A model generated the notes under the pieces. It was not told the DNA's origin. It saw only the letters and a list, made by a program, of their open reading frames with translations, and made no database searches. Shown here in pieces: positions 2,580-63,368 of a DNA stretch of 64,000 bases (its first letter is position 1; each line of letters opens with the position of its first letter). The position numbers and the translations under genes were made by a program. This DNA is from a virus. Its lineage: Duplodnaviria > Heunggongvirae > Uroviricota > Caudoviricetes. The stretch is from IMG/VR virus record IMGVR_UViG_3300028833_002293, positions 36,535 through 100,534 of that record; one strand, given 5' to 3'.

Positions 2580-3920
2580 TCAATGCTTACAGTTTTTTAT
2601 TAAATTAAGTATATATTCACACTTTTCTTTGTTTCCTAACATTTTCCCTTTATCATTTGATAGTTTAACACAATCTTGCCACTCACGGCTTTCAGTAATT
2701 CTAAATCCAGTGAGTTTTATTACAATATTGCTATATGGGAACTTCTTTACTTCAACTGGATAATTACCTCTTATAGTTTTTCCATCCTTTACCTCGTCTA
2801 TTGCCATTGGAGTACCTAGTGTTTCACACCAAAGATAACTTACGTCAGCGCATAAATGAGTTCCTATTCCCACTGAATCTTTCATTCGCCCATTGACCCA
2901 TTTGTGTAATTCTATAGCCTTGTCAATTGTAAGAGCATTTGAATACACGATTGCCTTTGTCGATGGGTCAATACCAAGAGAACGATACTTTTCAATAATC
3001 TTCTCAGTTTGTTCTTTCTCATCACCACTATCAACACGTAGGCCATCAAATGTTTTCGCAAGACGCTTAGACAAATTAGGGAAGAACATAACATCTGAGA
3101 AATTATCATAAAGGAAAATTCCGACATCACCGTTAAAACAGCGACTCCACTTATCCATTACTTGATAGTTACATTCAAACACGCCACTAACGCACTCTTC
3201 GGCAGATACAATCTGATGCGACATCGTGCCTATAACTCCAAGGTTAAATTCCTTTGCGAACCATACGTTAGATGTACCAACAAATTTACCTAATTTATCG
3301 GATTCTACAACTTGACCAACATTGCTACCTTTTCCGCTTTCAATGGCTTCTTGTGCTGCCTTTAAACCCCTAATAACCTCATGTTGAGCCTCGTATGAAA
3401 AGCGTCTACGAGTTCCCATGTCACTCCAACTAACACCATTTGCAATTAGTTTATTACCTTTAATAAAAGCCTCTTGAAAAACAGTATCCATATTAACCAA
3501 TTTCATATCACCATTGATAGTGTGCATCAACTCAGAAATGGTGGAGAGAATAGGCATTTCCCACATAATTGTAGAATACCACTTACCCTCAATCATGATT
3601 GAGAGATAACCCTCAAGGTCTTGGAAAATGTGAACCTCAGATGGGTTGAAACGGAAACCACGCAAGAAATTGTAATACCAATCTGGAAGGAAATAAATCT
3701 TGCTCTTCATGAACTCAATCTCTTCCTCAGTGATAACGACATCTTTCATACCGTCAATCTGCTCTTGTAGAAGCTTACCAAAACCCTCTGGATAGCGAGT
3801 ATGGTTACGGTCAAAGAAAGAATACCGTACCTCTGCACGAGGATAAGTGTGAAGAATGTAATACTGGCAAGTGTACGTGTAAAGGTCATTGTCAGTGAAA
3901 TGTGTAACAATTTGATTCAT
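2580..3920 (-). CDS. nicotinate/nicotinamide phosphoribosyltransferase family enzyme (PncB/NadV-like)
   Basis: 446 aa ORF; size and overall composition match the type-II PRTase NAPRTase/NAMPT family; paired in this window with a nicotinamidase, an NMN deamidase and a Nudix enzyme. Confidence 0.55.
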   Translation of the reverse strand: MNQIVTHFTDNDLYTYTCQYYILHTYPRAEVRYSFFDRNHTRYPEGFGKLLQEQIDGMKDVVITEEEIEFMKSKIYFLPDWYYNFLRGFRFNPSEVHIFQDLEGYLSIMIEGKWYSTIMWEMPILSTISELMHTINGDMKLVNMDTVFQEAFIKGNKLIANGVSWSDMGTRRRFSYEAQHEVIRGLKAAQEAIESGKGSNVGQVVESDKLGKFVGTSNVWFAKEFNLGVIGTMSHQIVSAEECVSGVFECNYQVMDKWSRCFNGDVGIFLYDNFSDVMFFPNLSKRLAKTFDGLRVDSGDEKEQTEKIIEKYRSLGIDPSTKAIVYSNALTIDKAIELHKWVNGRMKDSVGIGTHLCADVSYLWCETLGTPMAIDEVKDGKTIRGNYPVEVKKFPYSNIVIKLTGFRITESREWQDCVKLSNDKGKMLGNKEKCEYILNLIKNCKH

Positions 3921-3923
3921 ATA

Positions 3924-4367
3924 TTATTTCTCTTTTATTTTTTCTAAATTTATTACTGTTTTCTCTCCAATACGTAATGGCATTTGTTTTACAAGTTCTA
4001 GCCCTTCTAGACCAATAACTTGACCACGACCAAGCCTATCTTGAATATAGGCTATAACGTAATGTTTATTCTGACCGTGTTCAGCAACACCAATTATTTT
4101 GAAATCACCTGCATTTTTTCTTGCATCCTCTTCGTCTTGATAATGTAAGAAATTAGAATAGTATGGAACTTGACACTTGCCAGTAAAATGAACAAATGCA
4201 CCCTTATAGGATGAATAAGATTCACCCCAATCCTTAACCTTTACAATATCTCCCACACGAAATGGAAACAAAATTGTACCCCCATCACTATTAATATATT
4301 CAAATAGTTTAATATTCATATTCTTGTTGGGTATATGCCCTAGTAGTATCTTGCTCATAATCATCAA
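3924..4367 (-). CDS. hypothetical protein
   Basis: 147 aa ORF tightly packed downstream of the PRTase gene. Confidence 0.5.
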   Translation of the reverse strand: MMIMSKILLGHIPNKNMNIKLFEYINSDGGTILFPFRVGDIVKVKDWGESYSSYKGAFVHFTGKCQVPYYSNFLHYQDEEDARKNAGDFKIIGVAEHGQNKHYVIAYIQDRLGRGQVIGLEGLELVKQMPLRIGEKTVINLEKIKEK

Positions 4368-4674
4368 CCTCTTCTATATCATCGGCTGTTTCTCTAGTGC
4401 TGCTCCTACCATAGTAACTATTTGAATTGTTATAATAGGGGTTATATCTATCATGGGAGTTCTTAGAAAGCTCTCCCATGAAATAGAATGTCTCAGCACA
4501 AGAAACCATTAGGCATAGAACTAAGGCAATTCTGATTAAGCCTCTGAATAAATCTCTTCCCATTACCCAATAGCCATTAGCCAATCTTAATATCTTCATA
4601 ATTCTCGTGATACCACTTGTCGAATTCCTCGAACTCAGCGTCTGAGAACTCCTTACGTACTGCATCATACTCAA
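4309..4674 (-). CDS. hypothetical protein (N/Y-rich low-complexity tail)
   Basis: 121 aa ORF; overlaps neighbours at both ends, so the true start may be internal. Confidence 0.3.
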   Translation of the reverse strand: MSMMQYVRSSQTLSSRNSTSGITRIMKILRLANGYWVMGRDLFRGLIRIALVLCLMVSCAETFYFMGELSKNSHDRYNPYYNNSNSYYGRSSTRETADDIEEVDDYEQDTTRAYTQQEYEY

Positions 4675-5488
4675 TGTAATCGCAATACTTCACCTTAACG
4701 ATGACACGAGTGGAACTACCATTGCCACTGTAAAGAGGAATGATGGGACGTGCTACAATACCCTCCTCAAGCATTGTTGGGTCAGCAGCTCCCTCAAATT
4801 TGGTAGTGAAGCCCTTACGTACCATATCCTCAATGTCACGCAAGGTCATAACACCCAAGAAAGGAACTTGCTCAAGGCCAAGACACTTGCACATTGCATC
4901 ACGGTTCTCCTTTGGCAACCACCAACCTTGCCGTTTGATGTCGAACACACGGAATCCATTACCATTCTGAATGTAGCGAGAACCACACTTCTGAATACCA
5001 GTACCGAAATACTCACCGTAGATATAAACTGGAACCTCTTCAAGGGTTACACGATACATATCGGAACATAATGTTTCTGCTTTATTTCCATCGAGCCTAT
5101 AGTACTCTATTTTATTTGTTTCTTTGTCTTTTCTTGGAGTAAATCTAGCACTCTCTTTAGGGAACATTGCGCAAAGTTGTGGCTTGATGCGCTCACCAAT
5201 CTCTTGCAGCATTTCAAACTGTCCATGCTGAGAGCTTGCTTTATCAGTTTTGCCTTCAATTAAAATTTCTTGAGTTGATGGGAAAAAAGCAATTTTGCTA
5301 CAAGTTCCATCAATTTTGCTATATGCCTCCCAAGGACAATTGAAAAGGTAACTAGCCTCAATGTTTGAAAACTCGCCCAAGATTATTTTATTCTTGAACT
5401 TAAGCCACTTCTTGTTTGGACATTTACTACCATCAAATACATACCTTTTATACAAGGTGTTTATTTTTTGATAAACTTCTAGGCTCAT
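4577..5488 (-). CDS. ATP-dependent RNA ligase-like protein
   Basis: 303 aa ORF with nucleotidyltransferase motif I KIDGT (KxDG) near residue 60, as in T4 Rnl-type RNA ligases. Confidence 0.5.
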   Translation of the reverse strand: MSLEVYQKINTLYKRYVFDGSKCPNKKWLKFKNKIILGEFSNIEASYLFNCPWEAYSKIDGTCSKIAFFPSTQEILIEGKTDKASSQHGQFEMLQEIGERIKPQLCAMFPKESARFTPRKDKETNKIEYYRLDGNKAETLCSDMYRVTLEEVPVYIYGEYFGTGIQKCGSRYIQNGNGFRVFDIKRQGWWLPKENRDAMCKCLGLEQVPFLGVMTLRDIEDMVRKGFTTKFEGAADPTMLEEGIVARPIIPLYSGNGSSTRVIVKVKYCDYIEYDAVRKEFSDAEFEEFDKWYHENYEDIKIG

Positions 5489-6691: not shown

Positions 6692-6914
6692 TCTTCTTGA
6701 ATACGTCTTTGAAAGGCTTTACAATGCTTTTCCAACTGAATAGCCTATCAACTAATTTCTCACTGTCTAAGTCTATTACAAGACCCTCTAGTATTCCAAG
6801 TTTCTCTTTATATGTTGATGCCTCTTTTGAAACATCAACAAGGGTTGACTCCAACTGCTTGATTTTATTCTTCAAGCCATTGTACTCTGTCATCGGGATT
6901 TCTATCCTAGGCAT
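6675..6914 (-). CDS. hypothetical protein (coiled-coil-like)
   Basis: 79 aa ORF. Confidence 0.4.
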   Translation of the reverse strand: MPRIEIPMTEYNGLKNKIKQLESTLVDVSKEASTYKEKLGILEGLVIDLDSEKLVDRLFSWKSIVKPFKDVFKKNDKTE

Positions 6915-7489
6915 ACTCTTTCAGAATTTTCGATGAAGTTAGTAAACTTGTCAGCAGTATCTTGAGCGATTGCTGGACACAAATTCTTAATCACATGGAA
7001 ATTAACGTGAGGTAATCCCCTCAGTCCATCTTTTACAGAATCTTGGATGCAATAATCGTAGGCAATACCAGCGACATCAACATCAGTCACATTTAACTGC
7101 TCTTCACAGATTGTAATGAGCTTGTCACAAGATTTACCATTCTTGAAGATAGAATACTCTTCATGGTCTTCGTTTACGCCCTTTCTCAGAACAAGGTAAT
7201 CAGCCTTAATCTTGTTCAGTGCATCAAGAATTGGCTCATAGATAGCTGCACCTTTTGAATGCTGAACACAGTGAACTGGCCACATACCGCCATTATCCTT
7301 AAACGAACAGTGAGTGAACGGATGCCAGTCAACGGTAAGAATAATCTTATCATACACTGGACCATTTTCTATGATAAACTGAGCGAGTTTATCCATTGCT
7401 GCTGTTGCTCCATTAACAGCAAGCTTGCCACCTTCCAGGAAGTCGTATTGGCAATCAATCAGTAACAGTATTTTCGTCATTTGTTTCAC
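6902..7489 (-). CDS. pncA: nicotinamidase / isochorismatase-family hydrolase
   Basis: 195 aa; N-terminal LLLIDCQYDF and a catalytic Cys context typical of the PncA/isochorismatase fold. Confidence 0.6.
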   Translation of the reverse strand: MKQMTKILLLIDCQYDFLEGGKLAVNGATAAMDKLAQFIIENGPVYDKIILTVDWHPFTHCSFKDNGGMWPVHCVQHSKGAAIYEPILDALNKIKADYLVLRKGVNEDHEEYSIFKNGKSCDKLITICEEQLNVTDVDVAGIAYDYCIQDSVKDGLRGLPHVNFHVIKNLCPAIAQDTADKFTNFIENSERVCLG

Positions 7490-7997: not shown

Positions 7998-9392
7998 TTA
8001 GACTGTTAGGCTCTTCAGTTTGTTCTCTACAATCTCAAATGCTTCATCCTTAGTCATGTTAGGATTCTCAAAGTAAGCATCTTTAACAGTTTCAAGGAGT
8101 ATTCCTATTGTTGGAGAAGGTTTGATTTTAAATTCTTTTATGATGTCATTCCCAGAAATTGGAAGTTTTACATTTGCAGCTTTCTCAGCATCTTCCATTT
8201 CCTCAATTCTATTAAGAATATCAAGAACTTGTCTCTTCTTCTTACCATAGGTACAGTGCAAGTTGTTTGCATTCATCAAGTCAACAGTTGTGCCAAGGTC
8301 TTCACCAGTGAGGTTAATGAACTTCCTAATCTTCTTATCTGGAGGCATCACACCATCAGCATAAGGCGCAAATCCCCTATGGAACTTAATGGCAGTCTCT
8401 ACCGCCTTAATAATATAGTTAGGGAACTTCATTGCCTTAAGGTCATCAGCAGCCACTTCAGCACTGAATTTGTCTGGATTAACGTCTCTCCTTCTGTCAG
8501 TAATGATTCTGCCAACGTCATGGAACAACGCAGCTAAACGGTTCTCAAGATACGGCTGCACAGTATCAACCACGTTCATGGTATGGTCGAAAGTAGATAC
8601 CATTGGATTCTTTGACTCAAACGCATAAGTTGTGTCGTAAATGTCTGGCATTACTCTATGCAGTATTCCACAGTAGTACATTTTGCGAATACCAATACTA
8701 GGCTTTTTACAAAGCAGTATCTTTGAGATTTCGTCACTGATACGCTCTTGAGAGATTATCTTGATTCGATGTGCATTTTTAACCATACCCAACCATGTAT
8801 TCTTCTCAATACCCCAACCAAATCTAGTTGAGAAACGTATAACACGCAGTATTCTCAATGGGTCATCGTTGAACGTAATGTCTGGGTCAGTCGGTGTCTT
8901 AATCACTTGGTTCACAAGGTCATCCAAACCGTTGTTATAATCGTGAATCTTCTCTGTGCTAATGTTGTAGTACAGAGAGTTGATTGTAAGGTCACGTCTC
9001 TTAGCATCCTCTTGAATCGTACCATACACTGTGTCTGGATTTCTGCTCTCCTTATGATACTGCTCCTTACGAGTCTGAACACACTCAATCTCAATGTCTT
9101 TCAGCTCATCGTTTTTATAAAGCTGAAATTTAGCAGTTCCATATGTCTCAAACACGACTGGATTAGTTCCTTGTATATAACACTGATGCTTCATTGCCAT
9201 GTAACTTGCAAAGAGCATCCCCCCATTTTTGATTTCAATAACGATGTCAACGTCTTTTATGGGTTCATTGAGTAACGCATCCCTCACAGCACCGCCACAA
9301 ATATATACTTTTCCTTCAAAATGAGTTCCTTTAATTGAAGACTGTATTAGTTTTAACAGCTTTTTTATTTTTTCATCCTTGAAAATTTCCAT
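7998..9392 (-). CDS. cca: CCA-adding tRNA nucleotidyltransferase with HD domain
   Basis: 464 aa; Pol-beta head motif GGAVRDALL...DVDIV plus an HD-domain (HDVGR) region, as in bacterial CCA-adding enzymes. Confidence 0.65.
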   Translation of the reverse strand: MEIFKDEKIKKLLKLIQSSIKGTHFEGKVYICGGAVRDALLNEPIKDVDIVIEIKNGGMLFASYMAMKHQCYIQGTNPVVFETYGTAKFQLYKNDELKDIEIECVQTRKEQYHKESRNPDTVYGTIQEDAKRRDLTINSLYYNISTEKIHDYNNGLDDLVNQVIKTPTDPDITFNDDPLRILRVIRFSTRFGWGIEKNTWLGMVKNAHRIKIISQERISDEISKILLCKKPSIGIRKMYYCGILHRVMPDIYDTTYAFESKNPMVSTFDHTMNVVDTVQPYLENRLAALFHDVGRIITDRRRDVNPDKFSAEVAADDLKAMKFPNYIIKAVETAIKFHRGFAPYADGVMPPDKKIRKFINLTGEDLGTTVDLMNANNLHCTYGKKKRQVLDILNRIEEMEDAEKAANVKLPISGNDIIKEFKIKPSPTIGILLETVKDAYFENPNMTKDEAFEIVENKLKSLTV

Positions 9393-22208: not shown

Positions 22209-22823
22209 TTAAACGTCCTCGTCTTCATCCAACAAACGCAACTGAAGAGAAATCTCTTCAATGCGAGTCTTGTGGTTGAAAGCCCACTCGTAGTTGTCAA
22301 TGTCCTTAATCTTGACCCACTTAATCTCGCCTACCTCTGCACCCTCATTCTTCTCTTTTGAGAACTTGAAATCAGTTGTAACGTGGTCTTCAATCTTAGC
22401 ACCAAAACGGAAAGTAACGTTCTGTCTATTGGCTGTTACTGGGTTATCTTCATAATTGATAAATATAAGACTTTCAATAGGAATATGAACACCAGTTTCC
22501 TCAAAACACTCACGGACTGCGCACTCCTTAGTGGTTTCGTCATAATCGAGATAACCGCAAGGACAATTCCACATTCCCCTAAAGTCAGCAGCCTCTAAAC
22601 CACGCTCTGATGCTAGGACACACCAATCGCCATCTTCGTCCTTACAAAACGCAAACAATGCTGTTGCCATAGAACGGCTAAACCATCCAATGAAACACTT
22701 GTTAATCACCTCCAAGAACGGTTCATCGTCAATACCAGCGACACCGATGTTGGCACAGAGGTTTTTGATTTCCTCAATAAGTTTATTCATGTCCAAACAA
22801 GGACGATTTGTCATTTTCTCCAT
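22209..22823 (-). CDS. Nudix hydrolase
   Basis: 204 aa; Nudix box GX5EX7REVCEETG is present (AVRECFEETGVHI). Confidence 0.6.
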   Translation of the reverse strand: MEKMTNRPCLDMNKLIEEIKNLCANIGVAGIDDEPFLEVINKCFIGWFSRSMATALFAFCKDEDGDWCVLASERGLEAADFRGMWNCPCGYLDYDETTKECAVRECFEETGVHIPIESLIFINYEDNPVTANRQNVTFRFGAKIEDHVTTDFKFSKEKNEGAEVGEIKWVKIKDIDNYEWAFNHKTRIEEISLQLRLLDEDEDV

Positions 22824-31297: not shown

Positions 31298-31378
31298 AAT
31301 GTGAACCCCCTCAAGGAATCGAACCTCGTTATTACAGCACCACGCCAAATGTCCTACCATTAGACGAAAGGGGTATGG
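31298..31378 (-). ncRNA. tRNA-like element (acceptor, D-arm and T-arm fold; anticodon stem does not pair) - possible pseudo-tRNA
   Basis: reverse complement: ACCCCTT-TC-GTCTAATGGTAGGAC...CGAGG-TTCGATT-CCTTG-AGGGGGT. Confidence 0.3.
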
Positions 31379-34222: not shown

Positions 34223-34594
34223 TTAGTAACTCATGCGTGAGGGAATACATCCCCTCACACCCCCTCTTGGGTCTTCAACATCACCATCATACCTTGGTAT
34301 AATATGAATGTGGCAGTGCATCACGGTTTGTCCAGCACTCTTACCACAATTAACACCAATGTTATAACCACTTGGATGATACTTATCATCAAGTATTCCT
34401 TTAACGTGGTCAACTGCGCCAACAAGAGCACCCAATTCCACTTGGTTTAAATCAAAATAAGTTTCACAATGTCTTTTGGGAATTAATAGGGCATGCCCTT
34501 CCGAGACTGGATAACCATCTAAAATAGCCACCCATAAAGAATCTTGATAGACTATTCTATCTTCTTTGATGCCACAAAATACACAACCTTCCAT
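34223..34594 (-). CDS. HIT-family nucleotide hydrolase
   Basis: 123 aa; histidine-triad motif HCHIHIIP. Confidence 0.65.
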   Translation of the reverse strand: MEGCVFCGIKEDRIVYQDSLWVAILDGYPVSEGHALLIPKRHCETYFDLNQVELGALVGAVDHVKGILDDKYHPSGYNIGVNCGKSAGQTVMHCHIHIIPRYDGDVEDPRGGVRGCIPSRMSY

Positions 34595-35094
34595 TATTCT
34601 TCTACGGTTATACGTTTAATCTCACCAATTGCAATGTCCAAAGCCTCATTGATAGCTGTTTCTATGTTCTGACCTCGCAACCCATCAACATTGATTTTGC
34701 TATATTTGAAATCAACTTTTTTGTCGGTTAATGTAGCCACACAAATCCAAACCGTATTATCTGGGTCTTCATCAGCCGCCATAGGTGGAACTACGTTACC
34801 CACAACAGCCACACAAACGTCCACATTAAGCTTATAAATACCGTTGAGAGCCATTTGGCAAGCTGCTTGGGAACTAACAAGCCCATTGTTTTTAAACACG
34901 TTGTGAGAGACTTCTAGCATTTTCTCCATGTGGTCTGCATCGACTGTAACAATTGTACCACCATAAACGGTTGAAAGACCACACATGCTTGAGATTGATG
35001 CACCAAGCAAACCACTAGTGCAATGCTCAACAGTTCCGATGGTTAGACCAGCGTTCAGAAGCTCTAATCCTAATACTTTTAATTTATCCCTCAT
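34594..35094 (-). CDS. CinA C-terminal domain protein (PncC-type NMN deamidase)
   Basis: 166 aa; LTIGTVEHCTSGLLGASIS matches the CinA/PncC signature. Confidence 0.55.
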   Translation of the reverse strand: MRDKLKVLGLELLNAGLTIGTVEHCTSGLLGASISSMCGLSTVYGGTIVTVDADHMEKMLEVSHNVFKNNGLVSSQAACQMALNGIYKLNVDVCVAVVGNVVPPMAADEDPDNTVWICVATLTDKKVDFKYSKINVDGLRGQNIETAINEALDIAIGEIKRITVEE

Positions 35095-36124: not shown

Positions 36125-36322
36125 GTGTTATAACTTGAGACGATAATTGGTAATAATATATAATAGGTTTACCTGTACCAACCTTAAAGGTATCCTCTTA
36201 TCCATCAAGGAACTAGGGCAAGGGACTAATCCTCGCACCGCATTACTGCTTGTCTGCCATTTCTTACGTGGCTTGCGCTGTCTAACACATTTAAATCCTC
36301 AATATGAGAATACCAGCCGTAG

Positions 36323-36413
36323 TGAGCGTAGTAGGATTCGAACCCACGGTGAACTTTCTCAAGCCCATGCTAGTTTTAGGGACTAGTGCTTTAAACCACT
36401 CAGCCATACGCCC
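36323..36413 (-). tRNA. class-II tRNA with CUA anticodon - candidate amber (UAG) suppressor
   Basis: reverse complement: GGGCGTA/TACGCTC acceptor (one G-U) + A73; anticodon arm CTAGT-CCCTAAA-ACTAG, so anticodon CTA; ~20-nt variable region; T-arm GTGGG-TTCGAAT-CCTAC. Confidence 0.5.
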
Positions 36414-36421
36414 ATTATCTA

Positions 36422-36736
36422 TTATTCTGAAAGTCTTTTCAACTTATTGTTCAAAACAAGCAGCATACCTTCAGCAAGAAGCTTTTCATCTGTATGTCTC
36501 TGGATTGCCTCTTTCAACCTCTCTATTGCCACTTTCTTGGCTTCTTCTTCACTCTCATACACAAGTTGCCCATTAACGAGATAATCACCGTTCTCAAGGT
36601 CGGTTCTACCGATTTTGAACTTGGGTCTAGTTTTACCATCGTTAATAGGTTCTTTGACTACTTTTGATTCTATGACATCGTAGCCATTTATGTATATGGC
36701 AGTATCGCCAACATTTAAACTTGCTGCTTTTTTCAT
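36422..36736 (-). CDS. hypothetical protein
   Basis: 104 aa ORF; promoter 36739..36775. Confidence 0.5.
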   Translation of the reverse strand: MKKAASLNVGDTAIYINGYDVIESKVVKEPINDGKTRPKFKIGRTDLENGDYLVNGQLVYESEEEAKKVAIERLKEAIQRHTDEKLLAEGMLLVLNNKLKRLSE

Positions 36737-36738
36737 AT

Positions 36739-36775
36739 TGCAAAGATACGAAAAAAAGTTGAATTATCCAAATTT
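36739..36775 (-). promoter_or_regulatory. Bacteroidota-type promoter (full consensus copy)
   Basis: ttgcaaagatacgaaaaaaagttgaattatccaaat. Confidence 0.6.
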
Positions 36776-39744: not shown

Positions 39745-40000
39745 TTGCAGGGACTGACGGACTCGAACCGCCATCGTTTATTAACAGTTAAAGGCACACT
39801 CTGTTCCGAAGTCGAGACTGCGTTATTCCTTAAATCGCAACAAATTACTCTTACCATTAAGCTAAATCCCTATATAAATACAAAAGACTGAGAATTTTGT
39901 CTTATTGTTGATGCCATTCTACAACGGTTGGACGTTGCTCTTCACACGCTACCTTACGATAGACGTAGACACCATGCACGGACGGTCTTGTGAAGACCAC
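39745..40000 (-). ncRNA. LSU (23S) rRNA-like fragment, domain IV region (equivalent to E. coli ~1880-2070), containing a tRNA-like T-arm and a 22-nt repeat
   Basis: minus strand reads ...CTGCACCGTAAGGTTTAA...TCGTAAGGTAGCG...GAATGGC...CAGTCTCGACTTCGGAACAGAGTGTGCCTTTAACT, colinear with 23S H67-H71 and the GACGGAAAGACCCCGUGAACCUUUACU segment. Confidence 0.4.
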
Positions 40001-41756: not shown

Positions 41757-41795
41757 TTGCAAAGATATGAAAAATATTTTTAATATCCAAAATTT
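41757..41795 (-). promoter_or_regulatory. Bacteroidota-type promoter driving a tRNA transcription unit
   Basis: ttgcaaagatatgaaaaatatttttaatatccaaaat; the 5' leader contains the GGAAACTTACAGCAA motif; tRNA at 41568..41652. Confidence 0.6.
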
Positions 41796-42167: not shown

Positions 42168-42255
42168 AGTAACTTAGTGGAGCTAGAGGGAGTCGAACCC
42201 TCGTGCAAACAACCATTCCATAAGAAATTATACAAGCTTCCCCAAAGTGTTCGAA
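42168..42255 (-). ncRNA. tRNA-like element (canonical T-arm GAGGG-TTCGACT-CCCTC; acceptor pairing unclear)
   Basis: T-arm and adjacent 3' strand present; the 5' strand could not be paired cleanly. Confidence 0.25.
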
Positions 42256-42571
42256 AACACCGCCTTTGAGACCACCTCATTTTGTGAAAACGAGGAAAAC
42301 TAGGGGGGATGACTGGGAGTCACCGATTCCACCATTCAGTTTTGAGAAAACCGAAAAAACAAAATGCTAGGTTGTTCTGTTCCTAAGAGCCTAGCCTCTC
42401 GGCTCACTTACGCTGCAATAGCGTACTCGTAAGCAGGAGAATTAACATTCTCGCCAGTTATAGTTTTTGCTATTTTGGGTGTATGCCCACCGCTTGTTTC
42501 TTACCAAACGCATTGCTGTCAAATCCATTATAGCCCCATACGTTTCAAATGCTCAAAGAACTCTTTTAATG

Positions 42572-45283: not shown

Positions 45284-45355
45284 GCAGGCACAGCAGGAAT
45301 CGGACCCACATCTGAGGTTTTGGAGACCCCCATTCTAACCATTAAACTATGCGCC
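45284..45355 (-). tRNA. tRNA-Trp (anticodon CCA)
   Basis: reverse complement: AGGCGCA..GGGGT-CTCCAAA-ACCTC..GTGGG-TCCGATT-CCTGC-TGTGCCT-G. Confidence 0.55.
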
Positions 45356-46088
45356 TATTTATGTATTCTAGCAAATATTTTTTAGATGTTGGCAAATTAT
45401 AGTGTTCACACCACCTTCTTATACCATTATCTGAAACATTATATTTTTTTCCAACTTTTACGAAACTCTTTAATTCTTTGAAATCGTTGATAAGTGTTTC
45501 TTTTGATGGGTGCGTGTTTTCAAATCTTTTTTCAGCAAAATCACTAATAGAGGCTATAGAGCTTTTATTATCGCATTTTTTTACTTTCTCTTTTTTAACT
45601 TTCTCTTTTTTTACATATTTTGTGCTATTTTCCCTATTAGCATTTTTACCAGCATATGTATCAGTTAGTGAATGACAATTAGGGCATAATAACTGGATAT
45701 TCTCTAATCTATTATCATTATGTACCCCATTAACATGGTGTATCTGTAATGGTATAGGAACTCCTTCCCATTCAGTCCTTTTACAGCCTTCACATCTATA
45801 CTTTTTTATCCCTTCTTCTATTAATCTCTTCTTTAACTTTGTTGCGTCTTTGTATGTACTATCCTTCACTAGAATGTCTTTTGTTTCAATCCTAGGATGA
45901 TAGCTACACATTGTTTTTCTTTTGTAAGTGAATTTTAATTCAACTCCTAGTTCTTGCGCTAGTTGTTTAATCTCTTTGTAGTCTTCTCCACCTACGTTTT
46001 CAATTCCCATTTTATGACAAAGGTCTAACATATTAACACATTTGTCAGCATTTTCAATAAGTTTGTCAATTGCGTATTCCCGTTTCAT
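45342..46088 (-). CDS. HNH homing endonuclease
   Basis: 248 aa; HNH motif IHHVNGVHNDNRLENIQLLCPNCH. Confidence 0.6.
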   Translation of the reverse strand: MKREYAIDKLIENADKCVNMLDLCHKMGIENVGGEDYKEIKQLAQELGVELKFTYKRKTMCSYHPRIETKDILVKDSTYKDATKLKKRLIEEGIKKYRCEGCKRTEWEGVPIPLQIHHVNGVHNDNRLENIQLLCPNCHSLTDTYAGKNANRENSTKYVKKEKVKKEKVKKCDNKSSIASISDFAEKRFENTHPSKETLINDFKELKSFVKVGKKYNVSDNGIRRWCEHYNLPTSKKYLLEYINRRIV

Positions 46089-48032: not shown

Positions 48033-48113
48033 ATGATAAGAATTTTATAGTTATGTGTTAACAGTTAACTACCGTTTTTCCAATTTCATATTTCATAACA
48101 TTCTTTTTTTTTG

Positions 48114-48199
48114 TACACCGTATTGGAATCGAACCAATGTCACTGAACAAAACAGTACAGATTAAAAGTCTGTTGCATAATCCACTCTGCCAACAGTGC
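48114..48199 (-). tRNA. tRNA with UUU anticodon (Lys-type) and an 18-nt variable region
   Basis: reverse complement: GCACTGT..ACAGA-CTTTTAA-TCTGT-(18 nt)-ATTGG-TTCGATT-CCAAT-ACGGTGT-A. Confidence 0.45.
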
Positions 48200-50856: not shown

Positions 50857-51273
50857 TCATTGATTAATACTACTCAATATATGTTCTTTCCAGTAATTAC
50901 GTCTTGTACTATTTTTGTTTTTAGATTTAAAAGTGTCTAGTTGACTATCACAGTTAGGGCATATCATCCTTAAATTTTCTCTTTTGTTGTTTGACGCATC
51001 ACCATCAATATGGTCTAATACGAACACTAACGGTTTACCATTATGTTCTGGTTTACATCCGCATATTGCGCACATATTATTTTGTTCTTTCATAAATTCA
51101 TCTTTAAAATTTTTTGGGGTATAATTTCCTTTACAATATTTCTCATTGTGCTCCAAAAAATCTTTGTAAGATTCTTTATGCCTATATTCAGCAGAACATT
51201 GAAATGAACAATAAACTTTGTTTTCTCTTGTTGTTTCGAATTCTTTATTACAATTTATACATTTTTTAATCAT
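50857..51273 (-). CDS. HNH homing endonuclease (paralog of 55348..55962)
   Basis: 138 aa; the segment FVLDHIDGDASNNKRENLRMICPNCDSQLDTFKSKN is almost identical to the C-terminal half of 55348..55962. Confidence 0.6.
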   Translation of the reverse strand: MIKKCINCNKEFETTRENKVYCSFQCSAEYRHKESYKDFLEHNEKYCKGNYTPKNFKDEFMKEQNNMCAICGCKPEHNGKPLVFVLDHIDGDASNNKRENLRMICPNCDSQLDTFKSKNKNSTRRNYWKEHILSSINQ

Positions 51274-61418: not shown

Positions 61419-61843
61419 AACATTGCCTTTAAAAAACGGATACTTTTGTTTAATAGACCAATACCTACGAATAGGTGCTTAAACCATTTTATTAGGTTTA
61501 GCTTGGATTCGAACCAAGAAATTGTAACAAAGTCACATTGCTGTTAGTATCCTTGAGTTAACTATATCAACTATCACGTTTGGACTGCTACTAGAGACCT
61601 TACCCCCATCCATACCTCTCTAGGAAGATAACCTAGCACATTCTTTCAATTTCCATGACCCCACAGTTTATTGGACTTACGTGGCACGATTATTTGATAT
61701 ATAGTTGATGGTGTGGGATTCGAACCCACGTTGCCGATAGGCTGCGTTCCTACAGAAATTATTCACCTATCCATAGGATTCACTACTCTCTAGTTTCTTT
61801 TAGTACCGCCTTGCGCAATCCAGCTTACTGAACCATCAATTTG

Positions 61844-61916
61844 TCGAGAATGTTGGATTTGAACCACTCCCCATCACCCCAGATGACGTATGCTACCCGT
61901 TTACACTACATTCTCG
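61844..61916 (-). tRNA. tRNA, anticodon uncertain (possibly GGG, Pro-type); canonical acceptor stem and T-arm
   Basis: reverse complement: CGAGAAT...GTGG-TTCAAAT-CCAAC-ATTCTCG-A. Confidence 0.4.
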
Positions 61917-62653: not shown

Positions 62654-62744
62654 AAAATGCCAACACTCTAGAATTCTTGCATTATTACCTCTATAGTCTT
62701 ATGCTACTCTTAGAGAGGTTGTCTAAAGACTTGTACTAGCTTGT

Positions 62745-63368
62745 CGGAGAGGAGGGATTCGAACCCCCTGCATTTCTTATGTACTAGATTTCTTGCCACA
62801 CTATGTTACCATAGCCAAACTTAACAATAACGTATATACGAGGCACATGTCCCCATGCATCCAACCGATGATGCGTTAAATTTGTTGTGGTCTGGAATAC
62901 ATCTTTACCATATTGAAATTCTTCGAAGTTAATGTTCAGTAATTCCTATCATCTGTTTCATCTGATACGTCTACTTAAAATTAGATAGATATGTACATTA
63001 AATTTCAACTTAGGCATTCTTATCAGATACGTCTGAATAGAATGTGAGGGTATTCAATATATTTCCCTCATATCTCCTCTATACTCTCTACACGTTTATG
63101 AGAATCTTTCATTATCCATCTTCTTCCATTTTACTGATGGCTCTTCTCAATTTAGCACGGTATTATCCTTCCTTATTGTTTCAGATGCAGTTTACGTTTG
63201 CTGCAAGCCATTAAAGCCGTATTCCACTTTCGCCTATAGGCTACTAAGGGTCTTCAATTTTAACTAGGACTTCCACCGTTTTAGGGAGATTCTCATATGG
63301 GATTTCTCGCCATATGATGCAAATTCCTTACAGTCTAGCGCCCATCCACCATCTGAGCAGCTCTCCGA
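62745..63368 (-). ncRNA. ~620-nt mosaic RNA module, copy 2: termini CGGAGAG...CTCTCCG with a D-arm-like 5' end and a T-arm at the 3' end
   Basis: same five conserved blocks and GNRA hairpin CTATG-GTAA-CATAG as 54736..55311. Confidence 0.4.

Follow-up and report, generated by a model that had tools for sequence, protein, structure and literature searches.

The best-known route to stop-codon recoding is by way of phage suppressor tRNAs. Of the described systems, the one closest to that treated here is formed by the Sup-CUA tRNAs of gut phages recoded at TAG (crAss-like, Lak, Garnet, Topaz and Phassvirus; genetic code 15). Our subject is a tRNA gene with the anticodon CUA in a stretch of 64,000 nucleotides from a phage of the class Caudoviricetes (positions 36,535 to 100,534 of IMG/VR record IMGVR_UViG_3300028833_002293), which we call the window and whose coordinates are used throughout. 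Like the Sup-CUA phages, this phage encodes a CUA tRNA, has a low GC content and a probable Bacteroidota host that uses the standard code, and keeps the tRNA in a part of the genome that is itself apparently in standard code. However, those phages have in-frame TAG codons in hallmark genes, where they are read as glutamine, whereas none was found here in ~0.64 Mb of sequence from the clade. Moreover, eight sampled CUA tRNAs of unrelated large phages are class-I molecules of 71–76 nt, while that of the window is a class-II tRNA of 91 nt and of serine type. From its sequence and conservation we lean towards reading the gene as a working phage-encoded amber suppressor built on a tRNA-Ser body. 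As a phage suppressor it belongs to a known kind, but its build is unusual, with the serine body, an acceptor end that has been remodelled, a long arm that some relatives do without and a C at position 33.

Suppressor tRNAs are also known from gut jumbo phages and from relatives of recoded phages that use the standard code, and this condition, described by Borges et al. as 'TAG depleted, suppressor acquired, not recoded', has been proposed as a step before recoding (10.1101/2021.08.26.457843; PMC11662467). The phage of the window shares with these phages a suppressor without detectable recoding and the depletion of TAG as a stop, but they are known only from mentions in surveys, whereas here the tRNA shows compensatory conservation across a clade of 100–412-kb contigs. 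The Escherichia coli suppressor supD (serU) and the phage T4 suppressor psu1+ are likewise tRNA-Ser with a CUA anticodon, and seryl-tRNA synthetase (SerRS) does not read the anticodon. They arose as point mutants in the laboratory, with the native serine acceptor stem and discriminator retained, whereas the gene of the window is natural and conserved and has a non-serine acceptor stem (GGGCRUA), the pair G2·U71 and A73. Class-II shape together with an anticodon outside the serine, leucine and tyrosine sets is known from the nematode nev-tRNAs. It is also found in the allo-tRNAs of bacteria and phages described by Mukai et al., which have an acceptor/T-stem configuration of 8/4 or 9/3 and a 12-bp acceptor branch (PMC5389517). 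With the allo-tRNAs the window tRNA has in common the long arm, the type of anticodon and a place in tRNA clusters, which for allo-tRNAs include those of phages, but its acceptor stem of 7 bp and T-stem of 5 bp are canonical and it was therefore rejected as a member. The label tRNA-Pyl was likewise set aside, as ARAGORN applies it to any CUA anticodon and only this anticodon is shared. The variable loop of tRNA-Pyl has just 3 nt, its D-loop is tiny, and G18G19 and the T-loop consensus are lacking, whereas here the D- and T-loops are canonical and the variable arm is 22 nt long; among the annotated open reading frames (ORFs) there are no Pyl-related families.

A CUA tRNA family of one clade of huge phages

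The gene, whose parts are located in Table 1, measures 91 nt up to the discriminator A73 and folds as a class-II cloverleaf in the 7/5 acceptor/T configuration. ARAGORN calls a 92-nt tRNA at 36322–36413 of the minus strand with the anticodon cta, and Rfam family RF00005 matches 36323–36413 of the same strand over its full length (E = 4.3e-9 over the entire window) and scores 55.0 bits, where 29 is the gathering score. The hallmarks of the Rfam tRNA family are all present, namely a 7-bp acceptor stem, a D-arm with G18G19, a 7-nt anticodon loop on a 5-bp stem and a T-arm of the form GTTCRAnYC. The acceptor stem GGGCGUA/UACGCUC contains the wobble pair G2·U71 and is followed by A73 with no encoded CCA; the D-arm has a 3-bp stem and an 11-nt loop, the perfect 5-bp anticodon stem CUAGU/ACUAG closes the loop C32-C33-C34-U35-A36-A37-A38, and the T-arm reads GUGGG-UUCGAAU-CCUAC. 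The initial annotation had proposed a candidate amber suppressor from the acceptor stem with its G-U pair and discriminator A, the anticodon stem and loop, the variable region and the T-arm, and every one of these elements is borne out by the sequence, ARAGORN and Rfam. The placement of CUA at positions 34–36 is likewise reproduced in the Rfam covariance alignment, and the triplet is invariant in 11 family members; the annotation gave no strand, which is the minus strand, and passed over C33. The single-sequence folding z-score of −1.5 has little weight, being a usual value among tRNAs.

Relatives were anchored on a helicase-like gene 5 kb from the tRNA; the 259-amino-acid (aa) protein adjoining the tRNA has no relatives among viral contigs, and no relative was found among deposited phage genomes. 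The relatives in IMG/VR are contigs of 100–412 kb, among them huge phages of 295–412 kb, and in four contigs of ~410–413 kb the related region lies at differing coordinates, which suggests that these are complete, circularly permuted genomes; we take the genomes of the clade to be of 300–430 kb. The phage itself is likewise a huge phage and has no crAss-like affinity.

A CUA tRNA stands at the same relative position in 8 of 9 loci related through the helicase-like anchor (individual viral loci are given below as L numbers), a further short family member comes from L047, and the anticodon is CUA in all 11 copies. A pattern made of the T-arm and the 3′ acceptor strand is found in nine IMG/VR contigs, all of the same clade, and in 0 of 185,579 bacterial species genomes; an origin in a host tRNA was rejected on this ground. 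When ten distinct members are compared, standard pairs occupy 96.2% of the pair cells and ten pairs have changed on both sides (3:70 and 5:68 in the acceptor stem, three in the D-stem, three in the anticodon stem and two in the variable stem), values of pairing and covariation that none of 500 shuffles reached, and shifted registers are only 37–54% paired. The homologues are not recent copies of one sequence, because the proteins encoded by the flanking genes are 63–97% identical between relatives. Throughout the family A73 is invariant and position 2:71 is G·U or A-U but not G-C, and in some orthologues the long arm is shortened to 15–16 nt or lost (4–7 nt, in tRNAs of 75–77 nt). The family is confined to one huge-phage clade, and within it selection keeps the fold and the CUA anticodon.

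Outside the tRNA, a 3′ trailer C-UACGGCU(U)GG (36310–36321, minus strand) is conserved in 7 of 9 genomes, including L016, L019–L022 and L024, and could be a processing signal or a piece of the leader of the next gene. An exact search of viral contigs with the anticodon arm gave one match, in L004, which proved to be the reverse complement of a tRNA-Leu(UAG) arm; this false match arises because the anticodon arm is nearly palindromic.

Position 33 of tRNAs is almost always U. U33 is also the base of the other family members, C33 being confined to the window copy and L024. A base other than U at this position occurs in 40 of 1183 distinct phage tRNAs (3.4%; 31 C, or 2.6%, 8 G and 1 A) and is absent from the 174 bacterial tRNAs sampled, and the same CCCUAAA loop recurs in one unrelated phage CUA tRNA. 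C33 is therefore a rare but recurring feature of phage tRNAs and not an error, and in the window copy A36-A37-A38 is present beside it. Further examples of a base other than U at position 33 are the Pro-UGG tRNAs at 31303–31374 and 61843–61916 of the window and L037 4924–4996. Phage tRNAs have been reported with anticodon-loop changes that evade host anticodon nucleases (PMC10264068), and the non-U33 loops may be related to such evasion.

Body type and amino-acid identity

Judged by its D-arm, the geometry of its variable arm and its nearest matches, the body of the CUA tRNA is of the tRNA-Ser type. The nearest annotated phage tRNAs are tRNA-Ser, and bacterial tRNAs with the D-arm pattern of the family are tRNA-Ser in 115 of 117 cases, tRNA-Tyr in one and tRNA-Leu in none, some of them sharing the anticodon stem and the T-arm almost base for base. 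The long-arm members have a variable region of 15–22 nt with a stem of 4–8 bp and mostly one unpaired 3′ base, as compared with 15–24 nt, 5–7 bp and a single unpaired 3′ base (143 of 156) in reference tRNA-Ser, 11–15 nt, 3–4 bp and 2–3 unpaired bases in tRNA-Tyr, and 10–19 nt, mostly 3–4 bp and 1–2 unpaired bases in tRNA-Leu. The D-loop spacing before GG is 4, versus mostly 5 in tRNA-Leu (59 of 98; ARAGORN counts, 3-bp D-stem). A tRNA-Tyr body was rejected, as the 7-bp variable stem is too long and only 1 of the 117 D-arm matches is of this type, though A73 fits and CUA is one change from GUA; bacterial tyrosyl-tRNA synthetase (TyrRS) does read the anticodon. A tRNA-Leu body, which A73 would also fit, was rejected because the variable stem is too long, the GG of the D-loop comes one position earlier and none of the 117 D-arm matches is tRNA-Leu.

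Several observations weigh against a working suppressor on a serine body. The serine-type acceptor end (G73, G2-C71 and GGAGR) is absent; the D-arm-matched bacterial tRNA-Ser have G73 in 107 of 115 cases and A73 in only 3, and the phage's own tRNA-Ser has G73. At least four orthologues (L018, L019, L022 and L047) are without the long arm and otherwise intact, and as SerRS cannot charge them, identity may differ or be loose within the family. The clade also has long-arm tRNAs with lysine, asparagine, methionine and arginine anticodons. As for decoding, C33 may weaken it, given what is known of the U-turn, and the sampled clade sequence holds no gene with an in-frame TAG that would be a target. 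Behind TAG-ended genes the backup stop is no closer (median 9 versus 8–12 codons, p = 0.47), and an efficient suppressor made from the same type of promoter would be expected to extend the TAG-ended proteins, which account for 9–18% of the relatives' ORFs.

It had been reasoned initially that class-II bodies belong to serine, leucine or tyrosine tRNAs whose synthetases ignore the anticodon. The serine-like body agrees with this but the acceptor end, with A73 and G2·U71, does not, and the rule itself is unsafe because long arms occur here on tRNAs with class-I anticodons. The window has a class-II-shaped tRNA-Lys(UUU) of 87 nt (48113–48199) and a tRNA-Asn(GUU) of 89 nt (51684–51772), each beside normal 75-nt copies with the same anticodon, and the long-arm tRNAs of the relatives include Met-CAU (L016 15537–15620, L022 16054–16146 and L024 16263–16348) and Arg-CCU (L019 12297–12387). 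These molecules have a 3-bp D-stem, a paired arm and discriminators that match the isotype of the anticodon. Such a combination is also found in 55 of 1173 tRNAs from 1.4 Mb of unrelated large-phage arrays, 21 of them tRNA-Ile(UAU).

Serine is nonetheless our best single guess for the long-armed copy of the window, though a tentative one. A possible alternative, to which we give appreciable but lesser weight, is a suppressor that does not insert serine and would be charged by glutaminyl- or lysyl-tRNA synthetase (GlnRS, LysRS) through U35, by leucyl-tRNA synthetase (LeuRS) or TyrRS through A73, or by enzymes that depend on the family member. A73 and G2·U71, invariant or nearly so, are both atypical of tRNA-Ser, and the arm-less members keep everything else, so that recognition by SerRS is inessential to the family. 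The long-arm tRNA-Asn and tRNA-Lys of the window have G73 and A73, respectively, as their anticodons predict, which suggests that the anticodon and the acceptor end, rather than the arm, set identity in these phages. Many amber suppressors of E. coli are mischarged with glutamine or lysine. Every described phage reassignment of TAG is, moreover, to glutamine (10.1101/2021.08.26.457843). All of this has to be set against a D-arm, a variable-arm geometry, an anticodon stem and a T-arm that are each of serine type, a D-loop layout unlike that of tRNA-Leu and a variable stem far in excess of that of tRNA-Tyr. Furthermore, E. coli GlnRS accepts G1-C72 and A73 poorly, and the serine-bodied amber suppressors supD of E. 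coli and psu1 of T4 do insert serine.

Long-arm tRNAs resembling members of the family are found outside the clade as well. In two unrelated phages a long-arm tRNA-Trp(CCA) (L069 5801–5889 and L071 5718–5806) has an anticodon arm and a T-arm nearly equal to those of the CUA member of L021; the anticodon arm differs only at the middle base of the anticodon, and the acceptor stem is different and is followed by G73. This hints at module shuffling among the long-arm tRNAs of phages.

Use of TAG in the window and its relatives

The use of TAG was followed through the ~0.64 Mb of clade sequence and, for the genome of the window, through a composite of ~118 kb, roughly one third of the genome, that runs from about −50 kb (walked via L001, L025–L027, L117, L182, L321 and L324) to +68 kb (via L316) in window coordinates. 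The walks found only small accessory ORFs, and the composite holds no recognisable structural gene (capsid, portal, terminase or lysis). ORFs of at least 80 aa in the window end in TAG in 2 of 69 cases, in TAA in 53 and in TGA in 14. TAG ends 1 of 20 ORFs in L001, 54 of 512 in the related loci and 8–9 of ~45 in L321 and L324, or 3–18% of ORFs overall.

Reading TAG as sense raises the ORF coverage of the window from 0.67 to 0.72, but controls in which TGA or TAA is sense match or exceed this, and it is over tRNA genes that the gains are found. The related loci reach ~0.9 coverage under the standard code, and their gain under code 15 is at most 0.04 where they are protein-dense and not above the TGA-sense control in most of those rich in tRNA genes. 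The test is able to detect TAG recoding, as three unrelated loci serving as positive controls (L039, L048 and L065), probably TAG-recoded phages, gain 0.20–0.24 coverage under code 15 only; L048 has two class-I CUA tRNAs and zero TAG stops. The neighbourhood of the tRNA looks, so far, to be in standard code. This upholds the initial statement that the ORFs of the window are intact in the standard code, whereas the link drawn there to TAG recoding is so far not borne out, given the lack of any in-frame TAG in the clade sequence and the use of TAG as a stop in a composite that is without structural genes. A check for release-factor and aminoacyl-tRNA synthetase genes had also been proposed, and neither release-factor genes, release factor 2 (RF2) included, nor synthetase genes are present among window ORFs of at least 150 aa or the extension ORFs scanned; such accessory code-change genes are optional in known recoded phages (10.1101/2021.08.26.457843).

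A filtered search for in-frame TAG codons spanned on both sides by a continuous homologue left one candidate, at 4374–4376, seemingly spanned by L006. It was rejected, as the gene has a Shine-Dalgarno sequence and an ATG of its own downstream of this TAG, the homologue in L006, where there is no stop at this place, starts at its own ATG and that in L011 has no upstream extension. The same TAG ends a 25-codon hydrophobic mini-ORF, MIDITPIITIQIVTMVGAALEKQPMI (4374–4451, minus strand), that is in frame with the gene at 3924–4367, so that readthrough would fuse the two; the mini-ORF is found in L002 and L005 as well. In-frame extensions of 66–286 codons past other TAG stops turned out to be the next gene, in the same frame and with its own start. 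The isochorismatase-like gene (ORF 6902–7489) keeps its TAG stop at 6902–6904 in 7 of 9 genomes (L005, L007–L009, L011 and L012), and TAG ends only ~9% of ORFs in the clade overall. Readthrough at this stop was rejected too, since the TAG falls in the ribosome-binding region of the next gene, 8–10 nt before its ATG, and the extensions of 3–20 aa are not conserved.

A second alternative is that the tRNA serves TAG codons in late structural and lysis genes, within the other two-thirds of a genome of 300–430 kb whose early genes keep the standard code; the suppressor would then accumulate during infection and subsequently let the late proteins be made. We consider both this form of recoding and such late-gene targets unlikely, although there is a case for them. 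Published recoding in gut phages is concentrated in structural and lysis genes, with the code-change genes themselves in standard code (10.1101/2021.08.26.457843; PMC13037316). The strict conservation of CUA over a divergent clade points to a genuine function, TAG stops are depleted both in the window and in L001, and the sampling covered only the ~118-kb composite, in which no structural gene is recognisable. Yet the ~0.64 Mb of clade sequence is free of in-frame TAG, TAG is an ordinary stop in the relatives, including L321 and L324, and no RF2 or synthetase gene was seen in the ORFs scanned. The promoter motif ahead of the tRNA is also of the same host type as those of the early or middle genes around it, and 99.5% of jumbo phages were in standard code in one survey (PMC13037316). 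More specifically, the clade might read UAG as serine in a subset of late genes, by way of a serine body with a remodelled acceptor end and the host SerRS, which we regard as improbable.

Transcription, neighbouring genes and the role of the putative suppressor

The window is one long run of genes on the same strand, with 35% GC. The motif TTTGG-N19-TAtcTTTGCA, which we take to be the Bacteroidota −33/−7 promoter consensus, has ~25 copies on the coding (minus) strand of the window, including sites at 41767, 43662 and 52570, and two on the opposite strand. As the motif fits this consensus, the sites may be working promoters transcribed by the host polymerase and the host is probably a Bacteroidota bacterium of the gut or rumen. 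One copy precedes the CUA tRNA (Table 1), and an equivalent motif is found upstream of the tRNA in 9 of 9 relatives checked, in some at ~360 nt with an ORF of 110–130 codons between them and in others at 40–220 nt with no ORF; the order promoter, ORF and tRNA is repeated in L016, L017, L021 and L024. In the window the intervening 104-aa ORF has no family match in library scans. Between it and the tRNA there is no terminator-like site, so the two may well be co-transcribed.

Table 1. Positions of the CUA tRNA gene, its parts and associated features in the window
Feature	Position	Strand	Basis or remark
CUA tRNA gene	36323..36413	−	ARAGORN; Rfam RF00005, 55 bits; cloverleaf drawing; covariation in 10 homologues
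Anticodon CUA (positions 34–36), pairs with UAG	36377..36379	−	Invariant in all family members
C33	36380..36380	−	Sequence; otherwise only in the closest large relative, L024
Long variable region, 22 nt, 7-bp stem, GAGA loop	36348..36369	−	tRNA-Ser geometry
104-aa ORF between promoter and tRNA	36422..36736	−	ORF list; stop 8 nt before the tRNA
Putative Bacteroidota-type promoter: TTTGG, 19-nt spacer, TATCTTTGC	36740..36772	−	Begins 359 nt before the 5′ end of the tRNA
CCA-adding enzyme (tRNA nucleotidyltransferase)	7998..9392	−	PHROG 2244, E = 4.9e-60; Pfam PolyA_pol

In the pathway that we envisage, the host RNA polymerase would transcribe the CUA tRNA together with the adjoining small ORF, and RNase P and 3′ nucleases would excise the tRNA, to which CCA would then be added. 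CCA is encoded in 0 of 28 tRNAs of the window, which is consistent with the phage having its own CCA-adding enzyme. Maturation of tRNAs without an encoded CCA requires such an enzyme, and that of the phage may act on the CUA tRNA. A37 would probably be modified, given the A36-A37-A38 of the loop. The host SerRS would bind the long variable arm, ignore the anticodon and charge the tRNA, which would then compete with release factor 1 at UAG and insert serine. That the CUA tRNA acts as a translational suppressor of UAG appears probable. As to its role, we consider it most likely, with middling confidence, that the suppressor is maintained while the genome remains in standard code; readthrough of UAG would then be cheap, and the phage would tolerate amber mutations or a small number of TAG codons.

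It is very improbable that the tRNA has no part in translation and serves instead as a decoy or substitute against host defences that target tRNAs, or as a regulator, with its CUA incidental. The window is rich in genes for tRNA repair and supply (an RNA ligase, the CCA-adding enzyme, ~31 tRNAs and a transfer-messenger RNA (tmRNA)), and non-U33 is confined to phages in the tRNAs compared, which would suit such a function, as would the reported anticodon-loop changes that evade host nucleases (PMC10264068). But there is no host tRNA with CUA to replace or mimic, everything that aminoacylation and ribosome binding require is conserved, and an incidental anticodon would hardly be invariant in 11 of 11 copies while the adjacent stem pairs turn over. 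A decaying or accidental tRNA-Ser copy, or a functionless chance resemblance, is strongly disfavoured: the unusual C33, the erosion of the long arm in some relatives and the modest folding z-score are outweighed by the Rfam score of 55 bits, the syntenic conservation in 8 of 9 loci, the ten compensatory pairs (0 of 500 shuffles) and the invariance of acceptor stem, T-arm and anticodon, and covariation around an invariant CUA rules out a chance match or a decaying mutant.

The tRNA gene lies amid an extensive set of translation-related and other accessory genes. ARAGORN and Rfam find ~31 tRNA genes and a tmRNA in the window. The tmRNA (42175–42537, minus strand; Rfam 76.9 bits) is present in relatives too, with tag peptides such as GENVDSPAYEYAVAA. 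The RNA ligase and the CCA-adding enzyme (4577–5488 and 7998–9392) make up a kit for tRNA repair and maturation, and a set for NAD+ salvage comprises NADAR, NAPRTase, a nicotinamidase-like isochorismatase, NUDIX and CinA/PncC (520–1032, 2580–3920, 6902–7489, 22209–22823 and 34594–35094), which matches the published 'gut jumbo phages with NAD+ systems' (PMC11662467). DHFR and HNH endonucleases are encoded as well. Members of an HNH endonuclease-like family stand amid the tRNA genes (45342–46088, 50857–51273 and 55348–55962, minus strand), and their relatives mark the tRNA arrays of many unrelated large phages (1173 tRNAs, 80 loci). In its intron mode ARAGORN gives a candidate split tRNA-Tyr(GUA) at 62743–63367 of the minus strand with a 538-nt insert in the anticodon; spliced, it folds well with an unusual C1-G72, and the insert matches no intron class known to Rfam. 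Two further ARAGORN candidates on the minus strand have inserts, a tRNA-Asn(GUU) with 53 nt (Rfam tRNA 39.4 bits) and a tRNA-Leu(AAG) with 34 nt (39747–39871 and 59029–59142). Finally, ~17 kb past the left edge of the window, L026 17549–18184 encodes a stand-alone protein with a YqeY/GatB-like tRNA-binding domain (Pfam YqeY, E = 7.5e-17; PHROG 'tRNA amidotransferase').

For annotation, these results call for caution, as a long arm in the tRNA arrays of large phages does not predict serine, leucine or tyrosine and the ARAGORN label 'tRNA-Pyl' is meaningless. If the tRNA is charged with serine, it would widen the range of amino acids that phages can assign to UAG and would be a natural tRNA charged by a host synthetase without reading of the anticodon; were UAG in late genes indeed read as serine, viruses would gain their first example of a UAG-to-Ser reassignment. 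A conserved suppressor in phages in which TAG, as sampled, is still a stop provides a concrete case of the proposed intermediate in which the suppressor has been acquired and the code has not yet changed.

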